A stretch of 64,000 nucleotides of DNA. Source: Candidatus Angelobacter sp. GTDB lineage: Bacteria; Verrucomicrobiota; Verrucomicrobiia; Limisphaerales; DASXHY01. Position numbers and translations under genes: made by a program. The DNA is taken from positions 36,933 to 100,932 of the forward strand of contig DATNEA010000047.1 in assembly GCA_035606845.1 (NCBI GenBank). The letters run 5' to 3'. Below are positions 1,254-63,824 of the stretch, in pieces. The number at the start of each line of letters is the position of its first letter. Position 1 is the first letter of the stretch. The notes under the pieces were generated by a model. It was not told the DNA's origin and searched no databases. It was given only the letters and a program-made list of their open reading frames with translations.

Positions 1254-3929
1254 ATGAAATCATTCAGTCAAAAAATCGTCGTGGCGGCATTGCTCGCCGC
1301 CGGTTGCGTGTTCGCGCGCGCGGAAACTATCTCCATCGTCATCCCGACGAACGCCTCACCACGGGTGCAATTCGGCGCGCAGACGCTGGCCGGCACTCTC
1401 AATGTGGATCATCTCACCGCCGTGGTCACAAAGTCGCCCGATAAATCCACACGAGAAATCCATTTGGAAACGCCGCATGACAATTCCATCAAGCGCGAAG
1501 GTTTCCGTTTTGATCTGATGGGCAACAACGACGTCGTCATTACGTCGAGCGATGATTCCGGAACGCTTTATGGCTGTTTGGAATTGGCAAAACGGATTCG
1601 TGAATCTGGACAATACCCGCCCGCTGGAATCGCCAATTTTCAAGATGCTCCCGCCCTGACTCTCCGCGGCACGTGCGTTGGCATGCAAAAGACGTTCATT
1701 TTGCCCGGAAGAAAAGTTTACGAGTATCCCTACACGCCGGAATTGTTCCCCTGGTTCTACGACAAAAAACTTTGGACGGAGTATCTCGATTTTCTCGTGG
1801 AGAACCGCATGAACACGCTCTATCTCTGGAGCGGCCATCCGTTCGCTTCGCTCGTACGGCTCAAGGTATACCCCTACGCAGTCGAAGTGCCGGGCGACGT
1901 TTTCGCAAAAAACCAGGAACAATTCCGCTGGCTCGCGCAGGAATGCGACAAGCGCGGCATCTGGCTCGTGCAGATGTTCTACAACATTCTCGTTTCGAAA
2001 CCGTTCGCCGAAAAGAATCACATTTCGACGCAACTTTCCGCGCCGACGCCGCTCGTGGCCGATTATACGCGCAAATCCATCGCCGAATTCGTGAAGCAAT
2101 ATCCGAATGTCGGTCTCATGGTGTGCCTCGGCGAAGCGCTGCGTGGCACGAGCAATCAAGTCGCATGGGCGACACAGACAATTTTGCCCGGTGTAAAGGA
2201 CGGCATGAAAGCCGCGGGTTTGACAGAACAACCTCCCGTGGTCATCCGCACGCACGCGATGGATCCCTACGCGATCATGCCCGCTTGTTTCCAGGTCTAC
2301 TCCAATCTGTTCACGATCACGAAGTACAACGGCGAATCGCTGACCACCTGGAAGCCGCGCGGAAAAGACCAGGCCACGCATCTCGCCATGAGCAAGCTTG
2401 GGCCGCACCTCGTAAACATTCACATCCTTTCGAATCTCGAACCCTTCCGTTACGGCGACACGGAGTTCATCAAAAAGTCCGTGCAAGCGTCACGAGATCG
2501 GCTCGGCGCGAGCGGAGTCCATGTCTACCCCCTTTCTTATTGGAACTGGCCTTATTCGCCGGACATTGCCAATCCTCCGTTGCTGCAATGGCAGCGCGAC
2601 TGGATCTGGTTCGAAGCCTGGGCGCGATACTCGTGGAATCCGGACATTCCCGAACAACAGGATCACGCGTTTTGGATTTCGCAACTGGCCGATTATTACG
2701 GCAACACCAACGCCGCTGAGAAAATTCTTGAGGTCTACAATAATGCCGGCGAAGTTGCGCCGCGATTGGTTCGCCGCTTTGGCATCACGGAAGGCAATCG
2801 CCAGACCTTGTCGCTTGGCATGACTTTGGACCAGCTCGTGAACCCCCATAAATACGGGGCCATTGAGGACCTTTGGCTGTCGCAAGCGCCTCCCGGCGAG
2901 CGGCTGGATGAATACGTGAAAAAAGAATGGAACCACGAGCCGCACGTTGGCGAAACGCCGGAGAGCATCATCGCGGACGTGTTGACCTATTCGAGCAATG
3001 CCGTGGCCGCGGCGGATGCGGCGGAAACGCTCGTCACGAAAAACCGCGACGAGTTCGAGCGTTTGCGCAACGACGCTCGCTGCATTCAGGCGATGGCGTG
3101 GAATTACACCCACAAGGTGCGCGCCGCCGAATTGGTTTTGCGCTACGATTACAGCCACAACCTCCGCGACATGGAACAAGCCGGCAAACTCCTCGCCGAT
3201 AGCTTCACGGATTTCCAGCATCTGGACAATCTGACCAAAGCGACTTACCACTACGCGAACTCCATGCAAACCTCCCAACGGAAAATTCCGGTGAGCGGCG
3301 GCATGGGTGGCAAGCCGGCCTATTATCTCTGGTCGCAGATGGTGCCGCTTTATCAGCGCGAACTGGCGGATTTTCAAAGGAAGGTCGCCGATCTTCAAAT
3401 GAATAAGACCAACGTTGTCGACGAATTGAGCATCAAACCGTGGCCGGCAGCTCCGTTCAAATTGATTTCGATGAATGCGGAAACCTACAAAGTCGAAGTT
3501 GGCGCCAAAGTTTTCACCGATCGCAATTTTTCGATTCAAAGTCTCGCGCCGGAATTGAACGGTCTTACGGGAATTCGCATCTCACATGAGGCCGCCAAGA
3601 AAGGCCGTTATAAACCAATCGAATTTGAAGCTTCCGAACCGGTGGATGTGCTCGTGGGCTATTTCAAAAGCGACGAAAAAGTGTGGCTGCAGGTGCCGAA
3701 ACTGGAATTCGCCGCGCAGGCCGACGAGCGCGGCGGCATCGATACCGTGATTGAAAATGCGGCCACGATTTCCCAATGCCCCGCTCTGGATATCCACGCC
3801 TTTCGTTTCGACGCGGGCCGGCAAACGTTGGACCTCATCGGCAAAGGCAGTTTTGTCGTGCTCGGCATCGTGCCGCAATCAACCACCCTGACCCCGCGCG
3901 ATGCGCATCGCGGGAAAGGCGCGCCATGA
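1254..3929 (+). CDS. Secreted putative glycoside hydrolase, family unassigned (GH20/GH67/GH115-like N-terminal domain followed by a TIM-barrel-like core)
   Basis: The ATG directly follows the upstream TAA. Signal peptide MKSFSQKIVVAALLAAGCVFARA. The N-terminal segment ...DSGTLYGCLELAKRIRESG resembles the N-domain of alpha-glucuronidase/hexosaminidase-type enzymes. Its stop overlaps the next gene's start (ATGA). Confidence 0.45.
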   Translation: MKSFSQKIVVAALLAAGCVFARAETISIVIPTNASPRVQFGAQTLAGTLNVDHLTAVVTKSPDKSTREIHLETPHDNSIKREGFRFDLMGNNDVVITSSDDSGTLYGCLELAKRIRESGQYPPAGIANFQDAPALTLRGTCVGMQKTFILPGRKVYEYPYTPELFPWFYDKKLWTEYLDFLVENRMNTLYLWSGHPFASLVRLKVYPYAVEVPGDVFAKNQEQFRWLAQECDKRGIWLVQMFYNILVSKPFAEKNHISTQLSAPTPLVADYTRKSIAEFVKQYPNVGLMVCLGEALRGTSNQVAWATQTILPGVKDGMKAAGLTEQPPVVIRTHAMDPYAIMPACFQVYSNLFTITKYNGESLTTWKPRGKDQATHLAMSKLGPHLVNIHILSNLEPFRYGDTEFIKKSVQASRDRLGASGVHVYPLSYWNWPYSPDIANPPLLQWQRDWIWFEAWARYSWNPDIPEQQDHAFWISQLADYYGNTNAAEKILEVYNNAGEVAPRLVRRFGITEGNRQTLSLGMTLDQLVNPHKYGAIEDLWLSQAPPGERLDEYVKKEWNHEPHVGETPESIIADVLTYSSNAVAAADAAETLVTKNRDEFERLRNDARCIQAMAWNYTHKVRAAELVLRYDYSHNLRDMEQAGKLLADSFTDFQHLDNLTKATYHYANSMQTSQRKIPVSGGMGGKPAYYLWSQMVPLYQRELADFQRKVADLQMNKTNVVDELSIKPWPAAPFKLISMNAETYKVEVGAKVFTDRNFSIQSLAPELNGLTGIRISHEAAKKGRYKPIEFEASEPVDVLVGYFKSDEKVWLQVPKLEFAAQADERGGIDTVIENAATISQCPALDIHAFRFDAGRQTLDLIGKGSFVVLGIVPQSTTLTPRDAHRGKGAP

Positions 3930-9445: not shown

Positions 9446-10267
9446 ATGATCACAATCTCTCAGGCTCAGCGCGATCTTTACCAGAAGGAAGGCTACATGA
9501 TTTTGCCGGGAGTCATTCCCATCGACATGCTCGAAATGCTGCGCGAGGAATGCTCCTATTATCTCGGTTATTACGATTCCATCATGGACAGCAAGGGCGT
9601 GCAGACGGAGGGAATCAGCCATCGCGGCAAACGTTATTTCATCAACAACCGTTACCGCCTGAGCAATCGGTTGTGGCAATTCATTTTCAGCGATCTGATG
9701 GCGAAAGTCGCCGAGGCCACCGTCGGCCCGGACGCGCAATTGTTCCACGAACAATGGGTCGTGAAAGGCGCCGAACAAGGCATGAAGTTTTCCTGGCATC
9801 AGGACAGCGGTTACGTGAAATGGTACGACCCGACCACGAGTCACAAACCCTACGTGACTTGCTGGTGCACGCTCGACGCGGTGAATGAAGAGAACGGAAC
9901 CGTGTATGTTCTTCCCCATTCACGCGGCGGCACCAAGGACAAGATCATCGATCATCACAAGGAACAGGGCACGAACGACCTCATCGGCTACACCGGTTCG
10001 GATCCCGGCGATCCGCTCATCGTTCCCGCCGGCAGCATCGTGGCTTTTGACAGTTATCTGTTTCATCGCAGCGGCCCGAACAAAACCAACCGCATGCGCC
10101 GCATTTACCTCCCGCAGTACAGCGGCGCGCCGATTCGCCGCCCGGACGGCAAACCGTGGGCGATGGCCACGCCGTTTCTCAAAGACGGCAAAAATATTTA
10201 CAATCACGCCGAAGACTCCGCGGATAAATACGGCCCGTTCCCCGATAAAAAGAAAGAGGCCGCTTAG
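9446..10267 (+). CDS. PhyH-family Fe(II)/2-oxoglutarate dioxygenase
   Basis: The HxD motif is in SWHQDSGY, the distal His in LFHRSGPN, and an Arg in NRMRRIYL. Start ATG 9446 is preferred; an alternative ATG lies at 9407. The gene is divergent from the AraC gene. Confidence 0.8.
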   Translation: MITISQAQRDLYQKEGYMILPGVIPIDMLEMLREECSYYLGYYDSIMDSKGVQTEGISHRGKRYFINNRYRLSNRLWQFIFSDLMAKVAEATVGPDAQLFHEQWVVKGAEQGMKFSWHQDSGYVKWYDPTTSHKPYVTCWCTLDAVNEENGTVYVLPHSRGGTKDKIIDHHKEQGTNDLIGYTGSDPGDPLIVPAGSIVAFDSYLFHRSGPNKTNRMRRIYLPQYSGAPIRRPDGKPWAMATPFLKDGKNIYNHAEDSADKYGPFPDKKKEAA

Positions 10268-10474: not shown

Positions 10475-12460
10475 ATGTTTGAAAAAAGCGGCACGCGCCT
10501 CGTTTGGCGATTGAAGGAACAGACTCTCTGGGTCGAGCCCTGGGGACGAGACAGCATTCGCGTTCGCGCGACCACGCTCCCCGAAATGCCGCCGCGCAAC
10601 TGGAGTTTGCTGCCGCCAGAAAAATCTTCTCCAAAAATTTCCATCGAACCAGCCACGGCGAAGTTGGTGAACGGAAAACTCACTGCCACCATCGACGCCA
10701 AATCAGGCCGCGTGCGCTTCTTTAAAACCGGCGAAAGCGAGCCGTTGGTCGAAGAGATTTTTGCGCGCACGAATTATCCCGCCTCGCGCACGTTCAAATC
10801 CGTTGGCGGCGACCTTTCGCATTGCGAAGCCAGCTTCACCGCCTTCGACGGCGAACGAATCTACGGCCTCGGCCAGCGGCGGCACGGGTTGCTGGATCAA
10901 AAGGGCTGCATCCTCGAACTGACTCACCGAAACTCGCAGATTTCGATTCCATTCCTTGTCTCCAGCCGCGGCTACGGCCTGCTCTGGCACAATCCCGGCA
11001 TGGGCCGCGTGGAATTGGGCCGCACGCAGACACGCTGGGTGGCCGATGCTTCGCGATTGATCGATTACGTGGTCACGACCGGCGAGGAATACGCGGGCAT
11101 CATGGAACGTTACGCCGACCTTACCGGCCATGCCCCAGTGATGCCCAAATGGGCCGCCGGTTTCTGGCAATGCAAACTTCGCTACAAAACCCAGGACGAA
11201 TTGCTCGCCGTCGCGCGCGAACACAAACGGCGCGGCCTGCCCATGTCCATCATCGTCATCGATTACTTCAACTGGACGAAAATGGGCGAATGGAAATTTG
11301 ATCCCAGGTGCTGGCCCGATCCGTCCGCCATGGTGCGCGAACTCGACGCGCTGGGCATCAAAGTCATGGTCTCGGTTTGGCCCACCGTGAATCCCGACAG
11401 TGAAAACTTCGCGGAATTGGAGCGCCGCAACCTCCTCGTCCGCACGGAGCGCGGGCTGAACAGCTTCATCAAGTTCACCGATTCCAACGCAAATCAAACC
11501 GTGATTTCCGGTCTGCTCGACAGCACGCATCCGGAGGCGCGGAAATTTTTGTGGAGCAAGGTGCGCGAAAACTATTATCGCCACGGCATCAAGGCGTGGT
11601 GGCTCGACGCCATCGAACCGGAAATGGTCACGTACGACCATGACAACGTTCGCTATTACGCCGGCAATGGCCTCGAAGTGGGCTGCATTTACCCGATGAT
11701 GCAGCAACAGGCGCTTTACGAAGGCATGAGAGCCTCGGGCGAAACGGAAATCATTTCGCTCGGCCGCGCTGGTTTTGCCGGCAGCCAGCGCTACGGCGCG
11801 GCCATCTGGTCGGGAGACATTCATTCGACCTGGGAGGATTTGCGGCAACAAGTCCGCGCCGGCCTCAACATCGGTCTCAGCGGCATCCCCTGGTGGACCA
11901 CGGACATCGGCGGCTTCTTCGGCGGCGAGGTGGACACGCCTTATTTCCGCGAGCTCATCGTGCGCTGGTTTCAATACGGCGTCCTCTGTCCGTTGTTCCG
12001 GCTGCACGGCTGGCGGAACAGCTCGCTGGCGCATCCCGAGACCAGCGATCCCACTCGCGGCGGCCCGAACGAAGTCTGGACTTTCGGCGACCGCGCCTAC
12101 GGCATCATCCGCGAACTGATGTTTCTGCGCGAACGATTGCGGCCTTACATCATGGCGCAAATGAAACTCGCCAGCGCCAAAGGCACGCCGCCCATGCGCC
12201 CGCTGTTCTTCGATTTCCCCAAGGACGCCGCCGCGCCGGAGGTCGACGATCAATTTATGTTCGGCCCGGACCTGCTCGTCGCTCCCGTGCTGCACCAGGG
12301 CGCAAACAAACGAAAAGTTTACCTGCCCGCGGACGTCACCTGGACCGACGCATGGACCGGAAAAAAATTGAAAGGCGGACAAACCATCACCGCCGATGCG
12401 CCGCTGGAGAAAGTTCCGCTGTATCTACGAGCCGGACGCAAATTGCCCATTCGCGGCTGA
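10475..12460 (+). CDS. GH31 alpha-xylosidase/alpha-glucosidase
   Basis: Motifs VIDYFNW, KAWWLDAIEPE, WSGDIHSTWEDL and GIPWWTTDIGGF are present. ATG 10475 chosen (GTG 10457 is possible). A GPH symporter follows after a 6-nt spacer, as in the E. coli yicI-yicJ pair. Confidence 0.85.
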   Translation: MFEKSGTRLVWRLKEQTLWVEPWGRDSIRVRATTLPEMPPRNWSLLPPEKSSPKISIEPATAKLVNGKLTATIDAKSGRVRFFKTGESEPLVEEIFARTNYPASRTFKSVGGDLSHCEASFTAFDGERIYGLGQRRHGLLDQKGCILELTHRNSQISIPFLVSSRGYGLLWHNPGMGRVELGRTQTRWVADASRLIDYVVTTGEEYAGIMERYADLTGHAPVMPKWAAGFWQCKLRYKTQDELLAVAREHKRRGLPMSIIVIDYFNWTKMGEWKFDPRCWPDPSAMVRELDALGIKVMVSVWPTVNPDSENFAELERRNLLVRTERGLNSFIKFTDSNANQTVISGLLDSTHPEARKFLWSKVRENYYRHGIKAWWLDAIEPEMVTYDHDNVRYYAGNGLEVGCIYPMMQQQALYEGMRASGETEIISLGRAGFAGSQRYGAAIWSGDIHSTWEDLRQQVRAGLNIGLSGIPWWTTDIGGFFGGEVDTPYFRELIVRWFQYGVLCPLFRLHGWRNSSLAHPETSDPTRGGPNEVWTFGDRAYGIIRELMFLRERLRPYIMAQMKLASAKGTPPMRPLFFDFPKDAAAPEVDDQFMFGPDLLVAPVLHQGANKRKVYLPADVTWTDAWTGKKLKGGQTITADAPLEKVPLYLRAGRKLPIRG

Positions 12461-23147: not shown

Positions 23148-23195
23148 TCTGACCTGAATTAAGACCGTAAACAAAGTGAGACTTCTTGCCGCGGT

Positions 23196-23267
23196 GGTAG
23201 AGCGCGTCGCTCCGCGCGCGCCGCAAAACCGGGCAACAACGGCGCGCACGGAGTGGCGCGCCCTACC
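23196..23267. repeat. Inverted pair of 28-nt GC-rich repeat (GGTAGRGCGCGTCGCTCCGCGCGCGCCG); candidate bidirectional terminator
   Basis: Arms at 23196-23223 and 23240-23267 form a 28-bp stem (2 mismatches, 2 G-U) with a 16-nt loop. The pair lies between convergent genes. Confidence 0.75.
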
Positions 23268-23290
23268 ATCAAAATGCATTTTGTTAACGT

Positions 23291-39400: not shown

Positions 39401-39595
39401 AACAAACTGCGCGTCGGCATCGAGGACAATGGCCGCGGGTTCGAAAAAACCGCCGACGATCCCTGGGCCGACGGCCTCCGCAACATGCGCGAGCGGATGA
39501 TGGAAATCAGCGGCGAATGCCGCGTGGAAAGCCGCGTCGGCGCCGGCACCACCATTCAAATCGAAATCCCCTGGCAATCGGGCGAGAGCCTCTGA
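36446..39595 (+). CDS. Sensor histidine kinase with periplasmic two-component-regulator propeller + Y_Y_Y domain, HisKA_3/HATPase_c output
   Basis: Propeller repeats read DGLPDSSVTAIAQTPDGYLWIGTYNGLVRFDG. Y_Y_Y region reads LEFRYTGLSL...RVQFRYRLEG...WNQ. TM segment WWFRLLAGLIAFAIVAF. H-box ERERSRIARDIHDDLGASL. Start ATG 36446 chosen (alternative 36401). Confidence 0.85.
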   Translation: MVTRLAIVVFFLATALFLRASNEQYLTDVWTSDDGLPDSSVTAIAQTPDGYLWIGTYNGLVRFDGMRFVTFDPGNTPALAHARVRKLSVDDQGTLWVNTFDGSMTSVRQGVFTREWNREAGLDPDATLVSCASNQVTFLLHHGSLRRRTQSNPPGTGWEDLFPTNRAVGGLCLADGAGTIWYRGSDKHLLRVSGNGFVPLPENCGLKDDQVNCMTTDPQGRLWVGTSAEIAMWTGTYFESATPTNGPWPGEVTFLCVAGGGRIWAGVGSSVREIIHRQWKAEAPALKNVFTNGLTRGGTQEDHHGGAWIYDYTLGLWHVDAEGRARQFGIQDGFPGERVNCLFEDHEGNLWAGLDAAGLVRIRERRFQIIDSGSPLSGRPARSVCEDTNGALWIGTLGDGLARWQSGNLTDLPMPGGTGKGFVFCVCPDATGRIWASAGDEDLYVRKNGVFTRVKPIVHGVKVIFVDQKNRVWVGTKSGLYFADAGSTNAFRQLDGIGRHDVRALSEDGRGNLWAGTEDGTLFCITGDSVKTFHPSDGKTSQAIWSLYAEPNGTVWAGTFRGGLLRLRDNQFTRFSISEGLPDNVICQILPDDTGHLWLGSHQGILEVAKADLDRFAKGETNAIRVSAFGRSDGLPSLECSGGYQPAACRTRDGRLWFTTVKGAVSVQPDEIRPNRLAPPVVIEDILVDGRNLGPLADPEESSVPLALKTNATFDRRKNFLQIPPGKHQLEFRYTGLSLVASDRVQFRYRLEGADAAWVDAGKRRSVQYNLLPAGTYNFRVIACNSDGVWNQTGAGLRVKILPHFYETWWFRLLAGLIAFAIVAFTIRNISLRRLRSKMQQLERQHAIERERSRIARDIHDDLGASLNLIAVLGDLAKKQKTDERIEKMSATARQAVTSLDEIVWAVNPRNDTLAHLVDYAGQYATGYLRAAGIRCRLDVPEGMPAGEIASDVRHNLFLVIKEGLQNIVKHSRATEVWLRISTGENKLRVGIEDNGRGFEKTADDPWADGLRNMRERMMEISGECRVESRVGAGTTIQIEIPWQSGESL

Positions 39596-39676
39596 AAAAT
39601 ATTCCACATCGTATCTTCATCCGATGACTGCAAAAGAAGTTTTAAACTACTCTGGAGCAAATCAAGAAAGACTATG

Positions 39677-39744
39677 GCCGCAAAAGAACGCAGAGAACGC
39701 ACAGAAACAAAGTGTTCTTCGCGTTCTCTGCGTTCTTTTGCGGC
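39677..39744 (+). repeat. 24-bp perfect inverted repeat between the kinase and response-regulator genes
   Basis: Arms GCCGCAAAAGAACGCAGAGAACGC (39677-39700) and GCGTTCTCTGCGTTCTTTTGCGGC (39721-39744) flank a 20-nt loop. Confidence 0.85.
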
Positions 39745-39789
39745 TATGAATTTATTTTATCTGTTCTTACATCGATTTCTAAGGGTTTG

Positions 39790-48069: not shown

Positions 48070-48149
48070 CTCGTAGCAGTCGACGTAAGGAGGCTCTGTT
48101 TTTCGGAGCGCAGAGAGTTCGAGAGCCTCCTTACGTCGGCTGCTACGAG
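48070..48149. terminator. 27-bp-arm hairpin between convergent PL1 and GH43-like genes (candidate bidirectional terminator / REP)
   Basis: Arms CTCGTAGCAGTCGACGTAAGGAGGCTC (48070-48096) and GAGCCTCCTTACGTCGGCTGCTACGAG (48123-48149) have one G-U position and a 26-nt loop. Confidence 0.6.
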
Positions 48150-49835: not shown

Positions 49836-50015
49836 ATGGCTTACACCATAAATTTAGACGGGGAATCCATCCCCAAGGAAGAGCTGGACTTGCTGAGAAT
49901 CAAGCAAGCCATTCTGGACAAGTTGCGTGTCCGCTTCGGTGAAAACCCGAATCAGATGCCGTGGAACTCCGCCCAAAACGCGGCCACCGAAACCAAATCC
50001 CTCCGCCGGCAATAA
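49836..50015 (+). CDS. Hypothetical 59-aa protein (below the ORF-track cutoff)
   Basis: ATG..TAA read by hand: MAYTINLDGESIPKEELDLLRIKQAILDKLRVRFGENPNQMPWNSAQNAATETKSLRRQ. GGGAG lies ~12 nt upstream, and a TTGAAA...TATAAC promoter-like pair lies upstream. It uses AT-rich codons (ATA, TTA, AGA) atypical for the window. It may not be expressed. Confidence 0.25.
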   Translation: MAYTINLDGESIPKEELDLLRIKQAILDKLRVRFGENPNQMPWNSAQNAATETKSLRRQ

Positions 50016-50054
50016 GCCCGCGCCCGCCGCGATCAATCAAATGCATCCGGGCGC

Positions 50055-50642
50055 TCAGGCGTGGACGCTTTCCTGTTCCGGCACGTCTCCACTCGCTTCG
50101 GTTTCGAACGTTTCAGCAGATCGAGCTTCATTCACCAGCCGCTCGTAGAGAAACAGACAGGAGTCCTCGTCCATTGTCGGCAGCAAGTTTGAGCAGTGCG
50201 GGCAACTGGCATATTGGCTCGCGCTCACGCACTGAAGGAAAGTCTGCGGCCGTTCGAGGCGAAAAATTGTTTCGGGATACCGCTCCACCGGCTCATGCAG
50301 CGTCACCAGCACCGGAATTCCCGGCGCCGGAAGATACTCATAAAAATCCAATCCGTGCATGTGGATCAGGTCAATCGGCCACTTCTCAAGAAAGGTTTGC
50401 AAGGTATACCGGTACTGAGCATGGATGCGCTGGCGTTCGGCTTCGACTTGGGGATTGGCGGGTTTCGGCGTGGCCAGCAGAATTCCTTCCGTCACCGAGC
50501 CTTCGCACGCCATCACAAAAGATTCATGCCCGAGGCGGGCAAGCGCCGAGTCGAGGCGCGCCACGACCTGTTCGGCGCCGCCCAATGCGTCCGGGCAAAC
50601 CCTGGCGAACGGATGGGCAACATTCAGTACCACTAATTTCAT
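50055..50642 (-). CDS. GT4-type glycosyltransferase, N-terminal (Glyco_trans_4-like) domain only; probably truncated
   Basis: MKLVVLNVAHPF...GGAEQVVARLDSALARLGHESFV...IHMHGLDF...PVLVTLHEP matches the N-half of GT4 enzymes. The usual C-terminal Rossmann half (EX7E region) is absent and no downstream frame supplies it. Confidence 0.5.
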   Translation of the reverse strand: MKLVVLNVAHPFARVCPDALGGAEQVVARLDSALARLGHESFVMACEGSVTEGILLATPKPANPQVEAERQRIHAQYRYTLQTFLEKWPIDLIHMHGLDFYEYLPAPGIPVLVTLHEPVERYPETIFRLERPQTFLQCVSASQYASCPHCSNLLPTMDEDSCLFLYERLVNEARSAETFETEASGDVPEQESVHA

Positions 50643-50754
50643 AGCGAGTTAATGAACGCCTCCTTCGAGTCGCACTCAATAAGGGGTTCCCCTATCTGGG
50701 ATTGGATTTTCTACGGCGTACCTTCGGCTACCGCGATCGTCGATTCGCGGTTGG

Positions 50755-50845
50755 TCGTCCTCGTCCTCCTTCTCGTGTTCCTTCTCGTGTTCGTTCTCGA
50801 AATTCCCGGCAGATCGAGGACGAGGAGGAGAACGAGCAACGAACT
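50755..50845. repeat. Low-complexity pyrimidine tract (GTC/CTC)n followed by a complementary purine tract (GAG/GAC)n
   Basis: The tract reads GTCGTCCTCGTCCTCCTTCTCGTGTTCCTTCTCGTGTTCGTTCTCG ... CGAGGACGAGGAGGAGAACGAGCAACGAAC. TCCTCGTCCTC can pair with GAGGACGAGGA. An internal 12-bp unit CCTTCTCGTGTT occurs twice. Confidence 0.7.
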
Positions 50846-50889: not shown

Positions 50890-52113
50890 TCACACTGCGG
50901 CGAGTTTCAAAACCTCCAGCGCATACTTCTCCAACTCGAACGCCCGATGCCGCGTGGTGTGCTTCGCCAGCACGCATTCGCGCGCCCGGTAACCGATTCG
51001 CCGCCGTTGCAGCTCGGAAATTTCCTCCAGATAAATCATCGTCTCATCCGCCGTATGGGAAATCAGGATTTCATCGTCCGGTTTGAAAAACGTTTCCAGC
51101 CCCGGCCAGAATTCCGTAATCACCGGCGTGCCGCAGGCCGCCGCTTCAAACATCCGGAGATTCGGAGAAAAACCGGCCGCAATCGAATTGGGCGGCGTCA
51201 AGTTCAGCGCAAAGCGTTGCGAATTGTAAAACTCGCGATGCCTTCGTTCTGGCACATCCGGTCGGCGCTTCACGTTTTTAGGCCAGCGCGCACTGCGCGG
51301 ATATCCCGAACCTGCCACCATGAAAATGCCGTCCTCCCATCGCCGCGCCGGTTCGATCAGCAAGCGTTCCAAGGCCGGCTGTCGCTCCTCGCAATAATCG
51401 CCCAGATAACCGAGGTCCCATTTCGCTTCCTGTCGCTCCGGGAAAAATTGCCGGGCATCCACCGAACAATAAAGCGGCCGCGCCATCCGCGCGCCCCAGT
51501 GCTTTTCCATGTAATCCAGGAACGGCCCGCCCACCAGCGAAAGATAAAGGTCAAACCGCCGTGCCAATGCCGGTGAAATCGAACTTCCGTTTCCACCGGC
51601 GAACTTTGTCATCGTGGCGGGTGCAGCCAGATCGTAAAAGGCCGCCGCTCCCCGCGCGCGCCGAACAACCCATTCGGCAATTTCAGTCCCCTCGTCCAAG
51701 TGTGAACTGACGACGATTAGATCGGCTTCGCGAATTTCGCCTGCGAAGCGCTCTTTCAATTCCTTCAGCCCGGCGTAGTGCTGCTTGCGCCCGAAAGGCC
51801 ACTGCTTCGATTCCCCATCAACGGGCAGGTTTCGCTCGCGCTCCAGAAAACCCGCGTCATGACCTCGCGCGCTCAGATCCCGGATGAGCCCGCCGAAAAT
51901 CGTCGCCTTAGTCTGATCGGATGGCCCAAGAAAAACCATTTTCAAGCGCCGAAAATCCGGCTGGCCATTGCCATGCCCCAACAATGACCGCGGCGGACTT
52001 AACAAGGCCTTCGTATCCAGCCGCGAAACCAAATCCGATCTCGCAGCGCCGTTTACCGCGCTTCGCTCAACCAAGCCGTTGTGAGCCGGAAGGTCCAATT
52101 GTCTCGATTTCAC
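50890..52113 (-). CDS. CgeB-like / Glyco_trans_1_2-type glycosyltransferase-like protein (paralogue B)
   Basis: C-terminal GFSPNLRMFEAAACGTPVITEFWPGLETFFKPDDEIL...AKHTTRHRA is typical of the CgeB/DUF3880 family. Start 52113 gives an ATGA overlap with the upstream gene. An alternative ATG at 51939 (MVFLG) aligns better with paralogue A. Confidence 0.6.
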   Translation of the reverse strand: MKSRQLDLPAHNGLVERSAVNGAARSDLVSRLDTKALLSPPRSLLGHGNGQPDFRRLKMVFLGPSDQTKATIFGGLIRDLSARGHDAGFLERERNLPVDGESKQWPFGRKQHYAGLKELKERFAGEIREADLIVVSSHLDEGTEIAEWVVRRARGAAAFYDLAAPATMTKFAGGNGSSISPALARRFDLYLSLVGGPFLDYMEKHWGARMARPLYCSVDARQFFPERQEAKWDLGYLGDYCEERQPALERLLIEPARRWEDGIFMVAGSGYPRSARWPKNVKRRPDVPERRHREFYNSQRFALNLTPPNSIAAGFSPNLRMFEAAACGTPVITEFWPGLETFFKPDDEILISHTADETMIYLEEISELQRRRIGYRARECVLAKHTTRHRAFELEKYALEVLKLAAV

Positions 52114-60855: not shown

Positions 60856-62673
60856 TTAAGCTTTCTCCGGTTCGTTTTGCGGCGTGAAATCCCTGGCATG
60901 GCCGGGCACGCTGTATTCGTAAGGGCCGCGATAAACCACCGGGGCTTTGGCAAAATTGCCGTGCGGCGGCGGGGTGGGCGTCTGCCATTCAAGCGTGGTG
61001 GCTTGCCAGGGATTGTCCGAGCCGGCCGGTTTGCCGTGCTTGATGCTCCAGAAGAAATTGATAATGAACGGAATCTGCGAAATCCCCAAACCAACCACCG
61101 CCCACAGGATGAACACATGCAGCCGAATCAGGCTGTCGCTCAAGCCGCCGGTCACAATCAGGCCCGTGGCCGCGTTATGCGCCGCGGTGTAATTCGCGCC
61201 GCCGTCGGACATGCGCCGGATCATCCCCGCCATGCCCTGCGCGAACATCGGCTGGAAAATCAGGTTCATGCAGATCAATGACAGCCAGAAATGCACTTGG
61301 CCCCAGAATTCATTCATCATGCGGCCCGTCATTTTCGGGTACCAATAGTAAATGCCCGCAAACAGCGCAAAAATCGTCCCCGGCGCCACGATATAATGGA
61401 AGTGCGCGATCACGTAATAGGTGTCGTGCAGGTGCAAATCGCTGAAGTTGAAACCCAGCGGCAATCCCGTCAAACCGCCGATGCCGAACATCGGCAGAAA
61501 CGCCATCACAAACAACATCGGCGTGTTAAAGCGAATCGAACCGCCCCACAGCGACAGGAACATGCAGGTCAGGATGATGACCGAAGGAATCGAAATGATC
61601 ATCGTGGTGGTCTGGAAGAACGTCGCCACCCGGACGCCCATGCCCGTCAGATACATATGGTGCGCCCACACGATGAACGACATGAAACCGATGGTCAGCG
61701 CCGAGTAGACCAGCGATTTGTAACCCCAAATCGGCTTGCGCGTGTTGTTCGCGATGATTTCCGCCACAATGCCCATCGCGGGCAGGATCAGCACGTACAC
61801 TTCCGGATGTCCCAGGAACCAGAACAAGTGCTGCCACAACAACGGACTGCCGCCGCCGCTGATGGTTCCCAGCGTGCCGACCGCCAGACCGGTGGGCAGA
61901 AAGAAACTCGTATGCGCGACTTTGTCCATCAATTGCATGATGCTCGCCGCTTCCAGCGGCGGGAATGCCAGCAAGAGCAGGAACGCCGTCACGAATTGCG
62001 ACCACACAAAAAACGGCAAGCGCATCCAGGTCATGCCCGGCGCGCGAAGCTGGATGATTGTCGCAATGAAATTCACCGCGCCCAGCAGCGAGGACGTGAT
62101 CAGGAAAATCATGCCGATCAGCCAGAAGGTCTGGCCGTTCGTCGCGACGGCGGTCGCCAGCGGTGAATAGGAGGTCCAGCCGGCCTGCGCCGCGCCGCCC
62201 GGGATGAAAAAGCTGGTGAGCATGACAACACCGCCGACCACATACGATTGATAGCTCGCCATGTTCACGCGCGGGAACGCCATATCTGGCGCGCCAATCA
62301 TCAGCGGCACCACGTAATTCCCGAACGCCGCAAACGCCAGCGGCACAATCGCGAGAAACACCATGATGGTCCCGTGCATGGCGCCGAAGGAATTATAGAG
62401 TTCGGCCGAAATCTTGCCCTGGCTGGCCACGCTGCCCAGCACTTTTTCCAGCAACGGCCCGACAATCGGAACCGGGACGTTCGGATGCGCAATCTGCCAG
62501 CGCATCATCATCATCAGCAGAAACCCAAAAAACAAAAAGCACAGCGCGGTGATGCCGTACTGAATGCCGATGATTTTATGATCGGTGGAGAAGATGTAGG
62601 TGCGCCAGAAGCCCGCATGCTCGTGATGCTCCTCATGAACTCCGGTATGTGGAATTGCGTGTGTCGCCTGCAT
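60856..62673 (-). CDS. ctaD: Cytochrome c oxidase subunit I (heme-copper oxidase)
   Basis: 605 aa. Motifs WFLGHPEVYVLILPAMG, HHMYLTG and AHFHYIV are canonical heme a/a3-CuB ligand regions. Confidence 0.95.
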   Translation of the reverse strand: MQATHAIPHTGVHEEHHEHAGFWRTYIFSTDHKIIGIQYGITALCFLFFGFLLMMMMRWQIAHPNVPVPIVGPLLEKVLGSVASQGKISAELYNSFGAMHGTIMVFLAIVPLAFAAFGNYVVPLMIGAPDMAFPRVNMASYQSYVVGGVVMLTSFFIPGGAAQAGWTSYSPLATAVATNGQTFWLIGMIFLITSSLLGAVNFIATIIQLRAPGMTWMRLPFFVWSQFVTAFLLLLAFPPLEAASIMQLMDKVAHTSFFLPTGLAVGTLGTISGGGSPLLWQHLFWFLGHPEVYVLILPAMGIVAEIIANNTRKPIWGYKSLVYSALTIGFMSFIVWAHHMYLTGMGVRVATFFQTTTMIISIPSVIILTCMFLSLWGGSIRFNTPMLFVMAFLPMFGIGGLTGLPLGFNFSDLHLHDTYYVIAHFHYIVAPGTIFALFAGIYYWYPKMTGRMMNEFWGQVHFWLSLICMNLIFQPMFAQGMAGMIRRMSDGGANYTAAHNAATGLIVTGGLSDSLIRLHVFILWAVVGLGISQIPFIINFFWSIKHGKPAGSDNPWQATTLEWQTPTPPPHGNFAKAPVVYRGPYEYSVPGHARDFTPQNEPEKA

Positions 62674-62777
62674 TTTATCAATTCATTAGCTAAACATCTT
62701 TTGACCAACCGATGCCAAATGCGAATTAGTGAACTGGACTCAGCCAGACGTGTCAACGGCGGAGTCAAGTTTGACTC

Positions 62778-62927
62778 GTTAAATAAGTTAAAATGTTAAT
62801 CAAGTTAAATAGGTCAAATGGTTAAATTGGAAACGCGAATGTCGCGGTTTGACTTTTAACAAGTCACTTATTTAACCATTTAACGAATCACTCATTTAAC
62901 TCACTTAACTCACTTAACTCACTTAAC
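62778..62927. repeat. Two head-to-head arrays of 8-9 bp GTTAA(A/G)T-type units flanking a GC-rich core, in the ctaB-ctaD spacer
   Basis: GTTAA on the + strand occurs at 62778, 62787, 62795, 62804, (GTCAA at 62813) and 62821. TTAAC on the + strand (GTTAA on the minus strand) occurs at 62856, 62872, 62880, 62896, 62905, 62914 and 62923. The core AAACGCGAATGTCGCGGTTT lies at 62831-62850. Confidence 0.85.
62892..62927 (-). repeat. Four tandem 9-bp units (GTTAAGTGA x3, GTTAAATGA) that include the ctaB stop codon
   Basis: The minus strand reads ...GAT AAG GTT AAG TGA GTT AAG TGA GTT AAG TGA GTT AAA TGA. Each unit is in frame as Val-Lys-stop. Confidence 0.9.
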
Positions 62928-63824
62928 CTTATCCAAGACCATCATCACCAGCAGCATCGGCAAATATAAAATCGAAACAAAAAACAGTTGTCGCGCGCGC
63001 GGAATCGTCATGTACCGGGCAAATTGCACCGCGAACCAAAGAAAGGCCACGCCCAGCACCAGCGCGCCCACCAGGTAAATCGGACCGGTGACGTGAAACA
63101 AAAACGGACACAAACTCACCGGCAACAAGCCCAGCGTGTAAACCACCGCCTGGCGTCCGGTGCGTTCTCCGTGCGGATCCACCACAGGCAGCATTTTGAA
63201 CCCCGCCTTCGCATATTCCTCGCGATACATCCAGGCGATCGCCATGAAATGCGGCAATTGCCAAAAGGCCAGGATCGCAAACAGCGCCCAGCCTTCATGG
63301 CTCAATTCACCCCGCGCCGCCGTCCACCCCATGAGCGGCGGCAAAGCGCCCGGCACCGCGCCGACCGCTGTGTTCAGCCACGTCATGCGCTTCAACGGCG
63401 TGTAAATGAACACGTAGCTCATCAGCGAAATCGCGCCGATGACGCTCGTCGTCAGGTTCACCGCCACCGCCAATTCCAACAGGCCCGCGCACGCGGTCAC
63501 GCCGCCAAAGACCATCACCGTCGTCGGCTGCAACCGGCCCGACGGCAGCGGACGATTTTTCGTGCGGCGCATTTTCGCATCGTGCTCGCGCTCGATAAGC
63601 TGGTTCAACGCCGCCGCTCCGCTCGCCACCAGCGCCGTGCCAAACACCGCATGAAACATCAGCAAATAATTCACCGGGCCGGGGGACGCGAGATAAAAAC
63701 CAACCAGCGTGGTCAGCACCACCAGAAACGTGAGCCGTGCCTTGATCAAATCCGCATACACCGCCACCCAGCCCTTTTCGGCTGGGTTCACTTCATTCAA
63801 CGTTTGTACTGATGCTTCTTTCAT
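62919..63824 (-). CDS. ctaB: Protoheme IX farnesyltransferase (heme O synthase)
   Basis: UbiA-family motifs NQLIEREHDAKMRRTKNRPLPSGRL and multiple TM helices. The stop codon is embedded in a 9-bp tandem repeat. Confidence 0.9.
   Translation of the reverse strand: MKEASVQTLNEVNPAEKGWVAVYADLIKARLTFLVVLTTLVGFYLASPGPVNYLLMFHAVFGTALVASGAAALNQLIEREHDAKMRRTKNRPLPSGRLQPTTVMVFGGVTACAGLLELAVAVNLTTSVIGAISLMSYVFIYTPLKRMTWLNTAVGAVPGALPPLMGWTAARGELSHEGWALFAILAFWQLPHFMAIAWMYREEYAKAGFKMLPVVDPHGERTGRQAVVYTLGLLPVSLCPFLFHVTGPIYLVGALVLGVAFLWFAVQFARYMTIPRARQLFFVSILYLPMLLVMMVLDKVK

Follow-up and report, generated by a model that had tools for sequence, protein, structure and literature searches.

In a 64,000-nucleotide stretch of DNA from Candidatus Angelobacter sp. 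(contig DATNEA010000047.1, positions 36,933 to 100,932; hereafter the window), the spacer between ctaB and ctaD holds two head-to-head arrays of GTTAAAT-type units around a GC-rich core. Our best explanation of this element, held with moderate confidence, is that it is one locus-resident member of a lineage-specific, dispersed family of slippage-built, hairpin-forming repeats, comparable to the short tandemly repeated repetitive (STRR) sequences and repetitive extragenic palindromes (REPs) of other bacteria, and that it serves both as a 3'-end hairpin after ctaB and as an upstream promoter element.

The two genes are encoded on the minus strand, ctaB at 63824..62919 (301 aa) and ctaD at 62673..60856 (605 aa; open reading frame [ORF] coordinates). 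On the identical public contig L001, Pfam domains UbiA (CtaB) and COX1 (CtaD) are found, and the gene order is ctaA-ctaB-spacer-ctaD-ctaE-ctaF-x-x-ctaC-sco1-DUF420. The spacer (62674–62918) is 245 bp long, with a GC content of 0.32–0.43 versus ~0.57 in the flanking DNA. Positions 62778–62927 form a 150-bp imperfect palindrome, in which 8–9-bp GTTAAAT-type units flank a small GC hairpin on either side. One end of this repeat block lies inside the ctaB stop codon, and the other lies exactly 21 bp upstream of a TTGACA sequence (62756–62751). A first-pass annotation, made from the letters alone, had described an AT-rich spacer with two head-to-head 8–9-bp arrays and a GC-rich core; the description is accurate in its coordinates, and the arrangement is non-random.

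Read on the plus strand, the ctaD-side array (62778–62829) is, unit by unit, GTTAAATAA/GTTAAAATG/TTAATCAA/GTTAAATAG/GTCAAATG/GTTAAATTG, followed by the core AAACGCGAATGTCGCGGTTT (62831–62850). The opposing array, on the minus strand (62856–62927), has seven exact GTTAA units and ends in three copies of GTTAAGTGA plus GTTAAATGA. In the direction of transcription, on the minus strand throughout, the distal (ctaB-side) arm begins with a GTTAAGTGA unit (62919..62927) that reads GTT AAG TGA, the Val-Lys-stop of ctaB (stop TGA, 62921–62919). Two further GTTAAGTGA units and GTTAAATGA (62892..62918; Tandem Repeats Finder [TRF] period 9, 96%) make up the part that varies in copy number, and the rest of the arm reads GTGATTC GTTAAATG GTTAAATAA GTGACTT GTTAAAAGTC (62851..62891). 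Within this arm, GTTAAATAAGT is the exact complement of ACTTATTTAAC, which is invariant in the other arm. The core, AAACCGCGACATTCGCGTTT (62831..62850), contains a 5-bp stem, CGCGA/TCGCG, with a CAT loop (62834–62846), and this stem-loop is the tip of a hairpin that begins at the ctaB stop. With AAA on the 5' side of the stem and TTT on its 3' side, the tip is terminator-like; the core also includes an ATTCG motif common to all orthologs. The proximal (ctaD-side) arm, CCAATTTAAC CATTTGAC CTATTTAAC TTGATTAAC ATTTTAAC TTATTTAAC (62778..62830), includes the 34-bp invariant block CATTTAACTCATTTAACAATTTAACTTATTTAAC. It is followed by the 21-nt spacer GAGTCAAACTTGACTCCGCCG (62757..62777), variable in its 5' part and ending in a conserved TCCGCCG.

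Several measures set the block apart from its surroundings. TRF reports period 9 with 5.8 copies at 62778–62827 and period 9 with 4.2 copies (96%) at 62890–62927. Twelve of the 40 GTTAA sites in the window fall within the 150 bp, and the pattern TTAAC-N3/4-TTAAC-N3/4-TTAAC occurs four times in the block and nowhere else in the 64 kb, with 0.00 expected from 100 shuffles. The two arrays are mutually complementary (inverted repeats I1–I15). The sense (minus) strand folds as one long hairpin of -58.6 kcal/mol (z = -6.8), and the antisense strand reaches -43.1 kcal/mol (z = -4.4). An Rfam scan of the spacer gave one hit, RF03084, at chance level (16.6 bits against a gathering score of 41.2, E = 5.3).

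We then compared orthologous spacers. The locus itself is present on three public contigs (L001–L003), and CtaB homologs of 84–89% identity led to seven further distinct lineages, or eight with the window, all in one clade of Candidatus Angelobacter-like Verrucomicrobiae. This comparison, which the first-pass annotation had proposed as a check, bears out the element: it is present between the ctaB stop and TCCGCCGTTGACAC in 8/8 lineages (CtaB identity 84–100%), in a shorter form of 60–95 bp in the seven others. The order is the same in the orthologs, namely two to three GTTAAAT-like units, a GC-rich segment that always contains yATTCG, the series TTTAAC-N3-TTTAAC-AATTTAAC-TTATTTAAC, exactly 21 nt, and TTGACAC (alignment A1). 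Units are spaced 8–9 bp apart in every ortholog, in a series of 9, 8 and 9 bp. The last four units of the proximal arm are the block kept in 8/8 lineages in this alignment.

The two arms are conserved to very different degrees. In the proximal block, from ATTCG to the last TTAAC, 27 of 43 columns are invariant (63%; pairwise identity 0.83). Among four-fold degenerate sites, 11 of 121 are invariant in ctaB and 48 of 235 in ctaD (mean pairwise identity 0.51 and 0.61, 8 lineages), a pooled 59/356 (17%) that differs sharply from the proximal block (Fisher P = 4.5e-10). The sequence TCCGCCGTTGACAC has 13 of 14 columns invariant (pairwise identity 0.98), and GTTCACTA, further downstream, has 7 of 8 (0.94). 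From the proximal array to TTGACA the gap is 21 nt in 8/8 lineages despite drift in its sequence; its variable part, 14 columns of constant length, has a single invariant column (pairwise identity 0.52). The distal arm and core together keep 4 of 90 columns (4%; 0.24). These figures, together with the fixed register with the box, mark the ctaD-side arm as a cis-element under selection. No positional constraint is seen on the ctaB-side arm. A separate 7-bp-arm palindrome, GAGTCAA-GT-TTGACTC, does occur at 62762–62777, within the 21-nt spacer, as first annotated; it is conserved in 0/7 orthologous spacers and, being found in the window only (alignment A1), was rejected as a conserved operator.

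The ctaB-side array grows by slippage, and its unit is the terminal codons of ctaB. Because the ctaB stop is the last triplet of the first GTTAAGTGA unit, the tandem copies repeat the gene's own final nine bases. In relatives, ctaB ends ...AAA GTG AAG TAG/TAA, with the identical protein end DKVK*. Contig L003 (a Logan assembly; 977–1107) has two GTTAAGTGA copies versus four, with an identical CtaB, as well as a 1-nt deletion in the core loop (CGACATCGCG). The difference in copies reflects either real copy-number (strain) variation or collapse in a short-read assembly.

Downstream of the arrays lies a promoter-like sequence, (TCCGCCG)TTGACAC-N15-GTTCACT (62763–62728). Its -35-like box, TTGACA (62751..62756, minus strand), belongs to the nearly invariant TCCGCCGTTGACAC. 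The -10-like box, TTCACT (62733–62728), follows 17 nt later within AGTTCACT (62728..62735, minus strand; consensus GTTCACTA) and is weak, with no A at position 2. A sigma-70 consensus scan flagged no promoter in the window or in L214. More distant relatives show what the spacer looks like when the arrays are missing. The best CtaD matches among GTDB species representatives are 79–84% identical, and no ctaB–ctaD spacer of these relatives (CtaD ≤84%) with adjacent genes has arrays; these spacers measure 3–146 bp. TTGACA is present in 8 of the 9 array-less relatives with 88–126-bp spacers, 12–25 nt past the ctaB stop and 68–105 nt before the ctaD ATG, and the window box shares its left flank, TCCGCCG, with theirs. 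In the closest of them, L052, the scan scores TTGACA-18-TATTTT at 10/12, the only relative to score as a promoter. Since the box lies downstream of the arrays and is kept without them, the arrays are not the promoter, contrary to the first-pass claim that the block occupies the ctaD promoter region. They have been added between the ctaB stop and a promoter-like box that was already there. The array clade has the degenerate -10 TTCACT and array-less relatives have TAnnnT boxes, which would fit an upstream activating role for the arrays, on the strength of a single evolutionary event.

The layout recurs far from cta. A metagenome scan for four TTAAC units at 8–9-bp spacing returned at least 120 loci, with no cta locus among the scan matches listed. 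At least 10 contigs of GC 0.51–0.60 (soil) share the architecture in unrelated spacers: (GTTAAATnn)n, an unrelated GC-rich core of 15–35 nt and (nnATTTAAC)n, the boundary unit often being GTTAAATGAG/CTCATTTAAC. One such element (L101) is flanked by the genes for LptB and HprK, proteins assigned to 'Candidatus Angelobacter sp.', as is the window's CtaB, and others adjoin PtsN (L094) and GcvT (L165), both in Verrucomicrobiae metagenome-assembled genomes. Cores differ at every locus, and only the unit and the layout are common. Eleven other family members fold at z values of -1.8 to -11.6. Family elements occupy co-directional or convergent spacers; they typically begin in or beside a stop codon and end a few nucleotides from the next start or from a convergent gene's stop, ORF calls in these GC-rich contigs being noisy. 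An early impression that solo TTAAC arrays always face a downstream start was abandoned, since ORF calls filtered by third-position GC content (GC3) show a similar number abutting a convergent stop. The constant 21-bp distance to TTGACA was not seen at other family members. Polarity is strict: among the matches listed, GTTAA...TTAAC occurs at 32 loci versus one in the reverse order. Nearly all viral-contig matches to this pattern are solo tandem repeats (2 against 5 among the matches listed). With a permuted control motif, an inverted partner was never seen among the matches listed, and inverted partner arrays were likewise rare outside bacterial metagenome hits in the listed matches of the control scans. 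A search for further arrays, also suggested at first pass, thus came out both ways: none elsewhere in the 64-kb window, and the layout again in other, unrelated spacers from this taxon.

A dispersed family with the same end motif in one taxon, made of small, non-coding, intergenic elements whose inverted arms are built of sub-repeats and missing at this locus in more distant relatives, recalls a miniature inverted-repeat transposable element (MITE) or foldback transposon, as the first-pass annotation had proposed. Inserted between ctaB and ctaD, such an element would use its sub-repeated inverted ends as transposase-binding sites. However, when the element and its 30-bp core were compared by BLAST with 3.8 Mb of fetched loci, 120 of them chosen for such arrays, the only matches were to the same locus on L001–L003, and neither turned up anywhere else. 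The family shares unit and layout, not sequence, with a different core at every locus, which argues against a copy-and-paste MITE. No flanking direct repeat is seen, nor is a target-site duplication visible against array-less relatives, of which L005 and L052 have diverged too far for an empty site to be compared exactly. At least eight lineages keep the element stably at its orthologous position, it grows by local duplication of gene-terminal codons, near-identical copies are lacking, and no transposase lies nearby (L001). A transposon origin is therefore very improbable here, even with a MITE-like family to set beside it. That second, distinct family (L104, L111, L112, L155, L161 and L172; also L124, L151, L156 and L182) comes from gut-metagenome contigs of GC 0.38–0.57 and consists of GTTAARGRA/TYCYTTAAC arrays around a conserved 70–100-nt core (...GACAACAGTCTTTTTGGCGTAGTTTTTTAAGCAGCAAGACATATGTC...), in both orientations. 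It looks genuinely dispersed and is possibly MITE-like or invertible.

If the cta element works as a hairpin, its folding should matter. The sense-strand fold beats shuffles in 8 of 9 versions (z = -2.8 to -7.7), the exception being L084, the most compact. The free (distal) arm recurrently contains GTTAAATAAGT or GTTAAATGGGT, exact or G:U-compatible complements of the invariant ACTTATTTAAC. Across the eight lineages, sense folds have 45 G:U pairs versus 15 in antisense folds, with G mostly in the free arm. This excess is expected if pairing is maintained in the transcript leaving ctaB. The tip resembles a bidirectional intrinsic terminator: with the GTTAA...TTAAC polarity, the GC tip is preceded by AAA and followed by UUU on either strand, and elements of this layout lie directly after a stop codon, often between convergent genes. 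A GC-rich stem-loop does stand just downstream of the gene end here. Moreover, in a distant relative (L013, CtaD 71% identical) the ctaB–ctaD spacer holds a canonical intrinsic terminator, TCGCGAATGGGTCGCGG+TTTTTT (3254–3285), with the window's own core stem, CGCGA/TCGCG. L013 scores as a terminator in the consensus scan, and TTGACA is absent from its ctaB–ctaD spacer. The terminator-like tip and the L013 terminator with the same stem are why we read the element as the ctaAB 3'-end hairpin.

Several results weigh against this interpretation. Unlike a standard terminator, the element has arms of 50–70 nt made of repeated units and a sense-strand U-tract of only three U, UUU(AAC/CC); the tail TTTCCAAT falls short of at least five U in the eight positions 3' of the stem. 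A consensus terminator scan found no sense-strand terminator in the window or in L214 and flagged only the plus (antisense) strand of the window. RNAalifold recovered 0 pairs from a MAFFT alignment of the orthologs, in which the variable arm aligns poorly, and chimeras with arms swapped between lineages fold equally well (P = 0.43–0.52). Pairing is thus generic, any GTTAAAT array with any ATTTAAC array, with no lineage-specific compensation. Nor would a pure hairpin lead one to expect that one arm is frozen and the other free. Four other co-directional family members lack the sense/antisense asymmetry. On the promoter side, TTGACA-N17-TTCACT is a putative promoter by virtue of its conservation, and its -10 is weak. 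Finally, among lptB–hprK relatives with HprK of 85–95% identity the element is not conserved: L461 has only three GTTAAAT units, L460 has (ACGCAAC)n, L462 has (AACTAAA)n and L463 has nothing. Such turnover means that many family members may be dispensable. Taken together, hairpin potential at cta is maintained, covariation is not proven and the evidence for selection on the hairpin is mixed. Two candidates were dropped: compensatory core-stem changes seen by eye, after the non-significant arm-swap test, and sense/antisense stability as a family-wide signature, which fails at the four non-cta co-directional loci.

Turnover of this kind is seen at other loci as well. L136 and L190, with a flanking protein 93.7% identical, both have the element, and their arrays are different. 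In the lptB–hprK spacer, different short tandem repeats replace one another; L460 (9300–10000) carries a two-gene insertion (84- and 89-aa ORFs) and (ACGCAAC)n right before the hprK ATG, and the (AACTAAA)n of L462 lies at 9915–10000. The orthologous spacers of L119 (~11100–11190) and L187 (4190–4234), with ~71% flank identity, have TTAAC arrays with different units, TTAACGTT versus TTAACCTTT, homogenized within each array and divergent between species; the L119 array is ~45 nt upstream of a gene starting MGVPKRKTSK (L32-like). Fast turnover elsewhere implies that strong conservation at cta is a trait of that locus and not of the family.

Slippage and turnover could also be the marks of a neutral by-product, a slippage-prone, AT-rich, microsatellite-like tract without function whose palindromy arose via template switching between the arms. 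Copy number differs between near-identical contigs, the unit is copied from ctaB's final codons, at another locus the spacer is filled in relatives by different short tandem repeats, the window has further tandem-unit hairpins whose units are unrelated, and the arms show no lineage-specific compensation. Neutrality does not account, however, for a proximal block invariant at 63% of columns against 17% of four-fold sites, for a distance to TTGACA fixed in eight lineages, for an architecture kept in 8/8 of them or for a polarity of 32:1 among the matches listed. We consider it unlikely.

The same conserved arm can also be read as an operator or activator array. An unnamed DNA-binding protein would polymerize on the 8–9-bp-phased TTTAAC units. 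Its fixed-phase site upstream of the ctaD promoter, for activation or repression, would be the proximal array; the distal inverted array would supply sites for cooperativity or bridging, and the same factor would also bind the other family members. In favor, conservation of the proximal array matches that of the -35 box, and its distance from the box is kept while the intervening sequence drifts, the degenerate -10 of the array clade would suit activator dependence, the unit consensus GTTAAATGAG/CTCATTTAAC is common to unrelated loci with differing cores, and polarity is strict among the matches listed. Arrays of short motifs in direct and inverted order beside a promoter are familiar from R1 parC/ParR, omega heptads, MetJ boxes and CtrA/ArcA half-sites. 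TTAAC-type half-sites are used by OmpR-family regulators (CtrA, TTAA-N7-TTAAC; ArcA, GTTAA repeats), and ribbon-helix-helix proteins bind short tandem units (MetJ, 8-bp boxes; omega, 7-bp heptads).

Here, however, the period is 8–9 bp and not 10–11, and the arrays are split by a 15–35-bp core and recur at stop and start codons of unrelated genes. Spacing of 9, 8 and 9 bp departs from one helix face (~10.5 bp or a multiple) and would put consecutive sites on different faces. No regulator gene is linked to the examined cta loci, and genes beside family members have no common theme. Other arrays end 6–13 nt from start codons or overlap stops, with no constant promoter distance, and arrays turn over quickly at lptB–hprK and between L136 and L190. 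The sense-strand G:U excess at cta is not predicted either. We know of no cognate protein for GTTAAAT/TTTAAC arrays, and a literature search for GTTAAAT/ATTTAAC binding sites found nothing relevant. All told, we regard an operator as rather unlikely. As for what the first-pass annotation had made of the block, an iteron-like binding array would suit the proximal arm, the only one conserved in register with the promoter, but not the helical spacing. A curved-DNA switch is not favored, as 8–9-bp phasing is out of step with the helical repeat and planar curvature would not be expected. An unusual oxidase control region is plausible from the in-register conservation of the proximal arm, but the layout also occurs at lptB–hprK, ptsN and gcvT and is not specific to the oxidase locus.

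We therefore return to a slippage-built family member that doubles as a 3'-end hairpin and an upstream promoter element. A transcript reading out of ctaA–ctaB would hold both arms and could form a long AU-rich hairpin, its tip a GC stem between a 5' AAA and a 3' UUU. This hairpin, its stem lengthened by the repeat units, may end, block or at least stabilize the ctaAB message, and the ctaD-E-F-C promoter, 21 bp further on, would thereby be insulated from read-through. Both the sequence of the promoter-side arm and its distance from the -35 box are frozen, from which we infer that this arm has a second use, as an upstream promoter element acting at the DNA level; the other arm would need only to stay complementary. 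The analysis establishes the anatomy, the family, the slippage and the selection on the proximal arm; termination or insulation and upstream activation are candidate functions.

A joint version can be imagined, although we find it distinctly unlikely. Ribbon-helix-helix repressors coat 7–8-bp units, and an undescribed factor of Angelobacter-like Verrucomicrobiae might similarly coat convergent 9-bp-phased TTTAAC/GTTAAA units, so that ctaD would be governed by a hairpin-versus-protein switch. On this view the arrays would mark gene boundaries across the genome as nucleoprotein sites, the fixed-phase array would couple oxidase transcription to the factor, and the factor's binding would face competition from read-through RNA or extruded DNA by way of the complementary arm.

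Between the promoter-like box and ctaD lies a putative leader (62674..62727, minus strand; ctaD ATG at 62673–62671) with 20 of 54 columns invariant. Its motif CAAAAGATGTTnAGCTAAT (62703–62685, minus strand), 12–30 nt upstream of the ctaD ATG, is present in 8/8 lineages. The motif holds a three-codon mini-ORF, ATG TTx AGC TAA, which is lost in L218 (ACG). Across the window, Shine–Dalgarno-like tetramers precede 4 of 40 confident gene starts, and leaders are A/C-rich and G-poor. With so few such tetramers, the lineage seems to initiate translation largely without Shine–Dalgarno pairing.

Other gene ends in the window carry hairpins as well. At 39655–39766, in the spacer after an ORF ending at 39595, 9-bp AGAACGCAS units form a head-to-head hairpin, AGAACGCAG AGAACGCAC in one arm and TCGCGTTCT CTGCGTTCT in the other (52-nt arms, 77% complementary); the build is cta-like and the unit unrelated. 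At 50755–50836, between the convergent ORFs 49961..50644 (+) and 50890..52113 (-), inverted (TCGTCC)n...(GGACGA)n enclose 2.8 copies of a 12-bp repeat, TCCTTCTCGTGT. Long, near-perfect hairpins at 48070–48149 (28-nt arms, 96%) and 23195–23268 (29-nt arms, 86%) abut stops between convergent genes, have no obvious T-tract and are probably the genome's usual 3'-end structures. Gene-end hairpins, some of them slippage-built, are a habit of this genome.

Among known systems, the closest are families of short intergenic repeats. In cyanobacteria, STRR hairpins such as that of hupS–hupL in Nostoc/Anabaena are built of 7-bp units, and roles in stability, translational coupling or termination have been proposed for them and remain unproven (PMC2670836). 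As in the STRR class, short tandem units (~6–9 nt) recur here in many unrelated intergenic spacers of one lineage, form hairpins between genes or near the upstream 3' end, and vary in length at orthologous positions (L003 versus L001, the eight cta orthologs, L136 versus L190). Unlike STRR units, which have 7 bp and another sequence, ours are 8–9-bp AT-rich GTTAAATNN units in a GC-rich Verrucomicrobia genome; they are regularly set head-to-head around a GC stem-loop with strict polarity, and at cta strong purifying selection acts on one arm, whose distance from a promoter box is constant. The heptamer simple sequence repeats (SSRs) of Xanthomonas (GGGAATC) and Nostoc (GGGGAYT) lie much nearer the end of the upstream ORF than the next ORF, occupy the same orthologous spacers in related species, and vary in length and sequence in a manner ascribed to slippage (PMC4692102). 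Our family resembles them in being dispersed and intergenic, in its position at the upstream ORF end, in its orthologous positions and in its length variation. However, those repeats are G-rich, G-quadruplex-forming and mostly single arrays, whereas AT-rich inverted arrays would form duplex hairpins.

REPs, with bacterial interspersed mosaic elements (BIMEs) and REPINs, are likewise extragenic palindromes found mostly 3' of coding regions, with RNA hairpins for which roles in termination or mRNA stabilization have been proposed (PMC3733652, PMC3116915). They are defined by a GTAG/CGTC tag, a 20–40-bp palindrome and association with REP-associated tyrosine transposases (RAYTs) (PMC3733652). Neither end of our element has the tag, its arms are 50–70 nt of GTTAAAT units, and family members are not uniform 20–40-bp copies but contain tandem sub-units of variable number around cores unshared between loci. 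No RAYT-type transposase lies near the cta locus (L001). In our literature search, no account of elements of this kind in Verrucomicrobia came up.

Cyanobacteria and xanthomonads are thus known to have dispersed families of intergenic short repeats, whose function has yet to be settled. New here is an AT-rich, strictly head-to-head version with 9-bp units in an abundant lineage of uncultured soil Verrucomicrobia. Annotators of these genomes should expect AT-rich repeat blocks at gene ends as a recurrent class of element, and not take them for locus-specific regulators or assembly artifacts. The cta locus is an unusually clean natural experiment, with one arm frozen in register with a promoter box and the other free to vary by slippage. 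Its two arms separate sequence-specific constraint at the DNA level from constraint on pairing only, which are usually confounded in extragenic palindromes, and the element offers concrete constructs for asking whether such elements terminate, insulate or activate.

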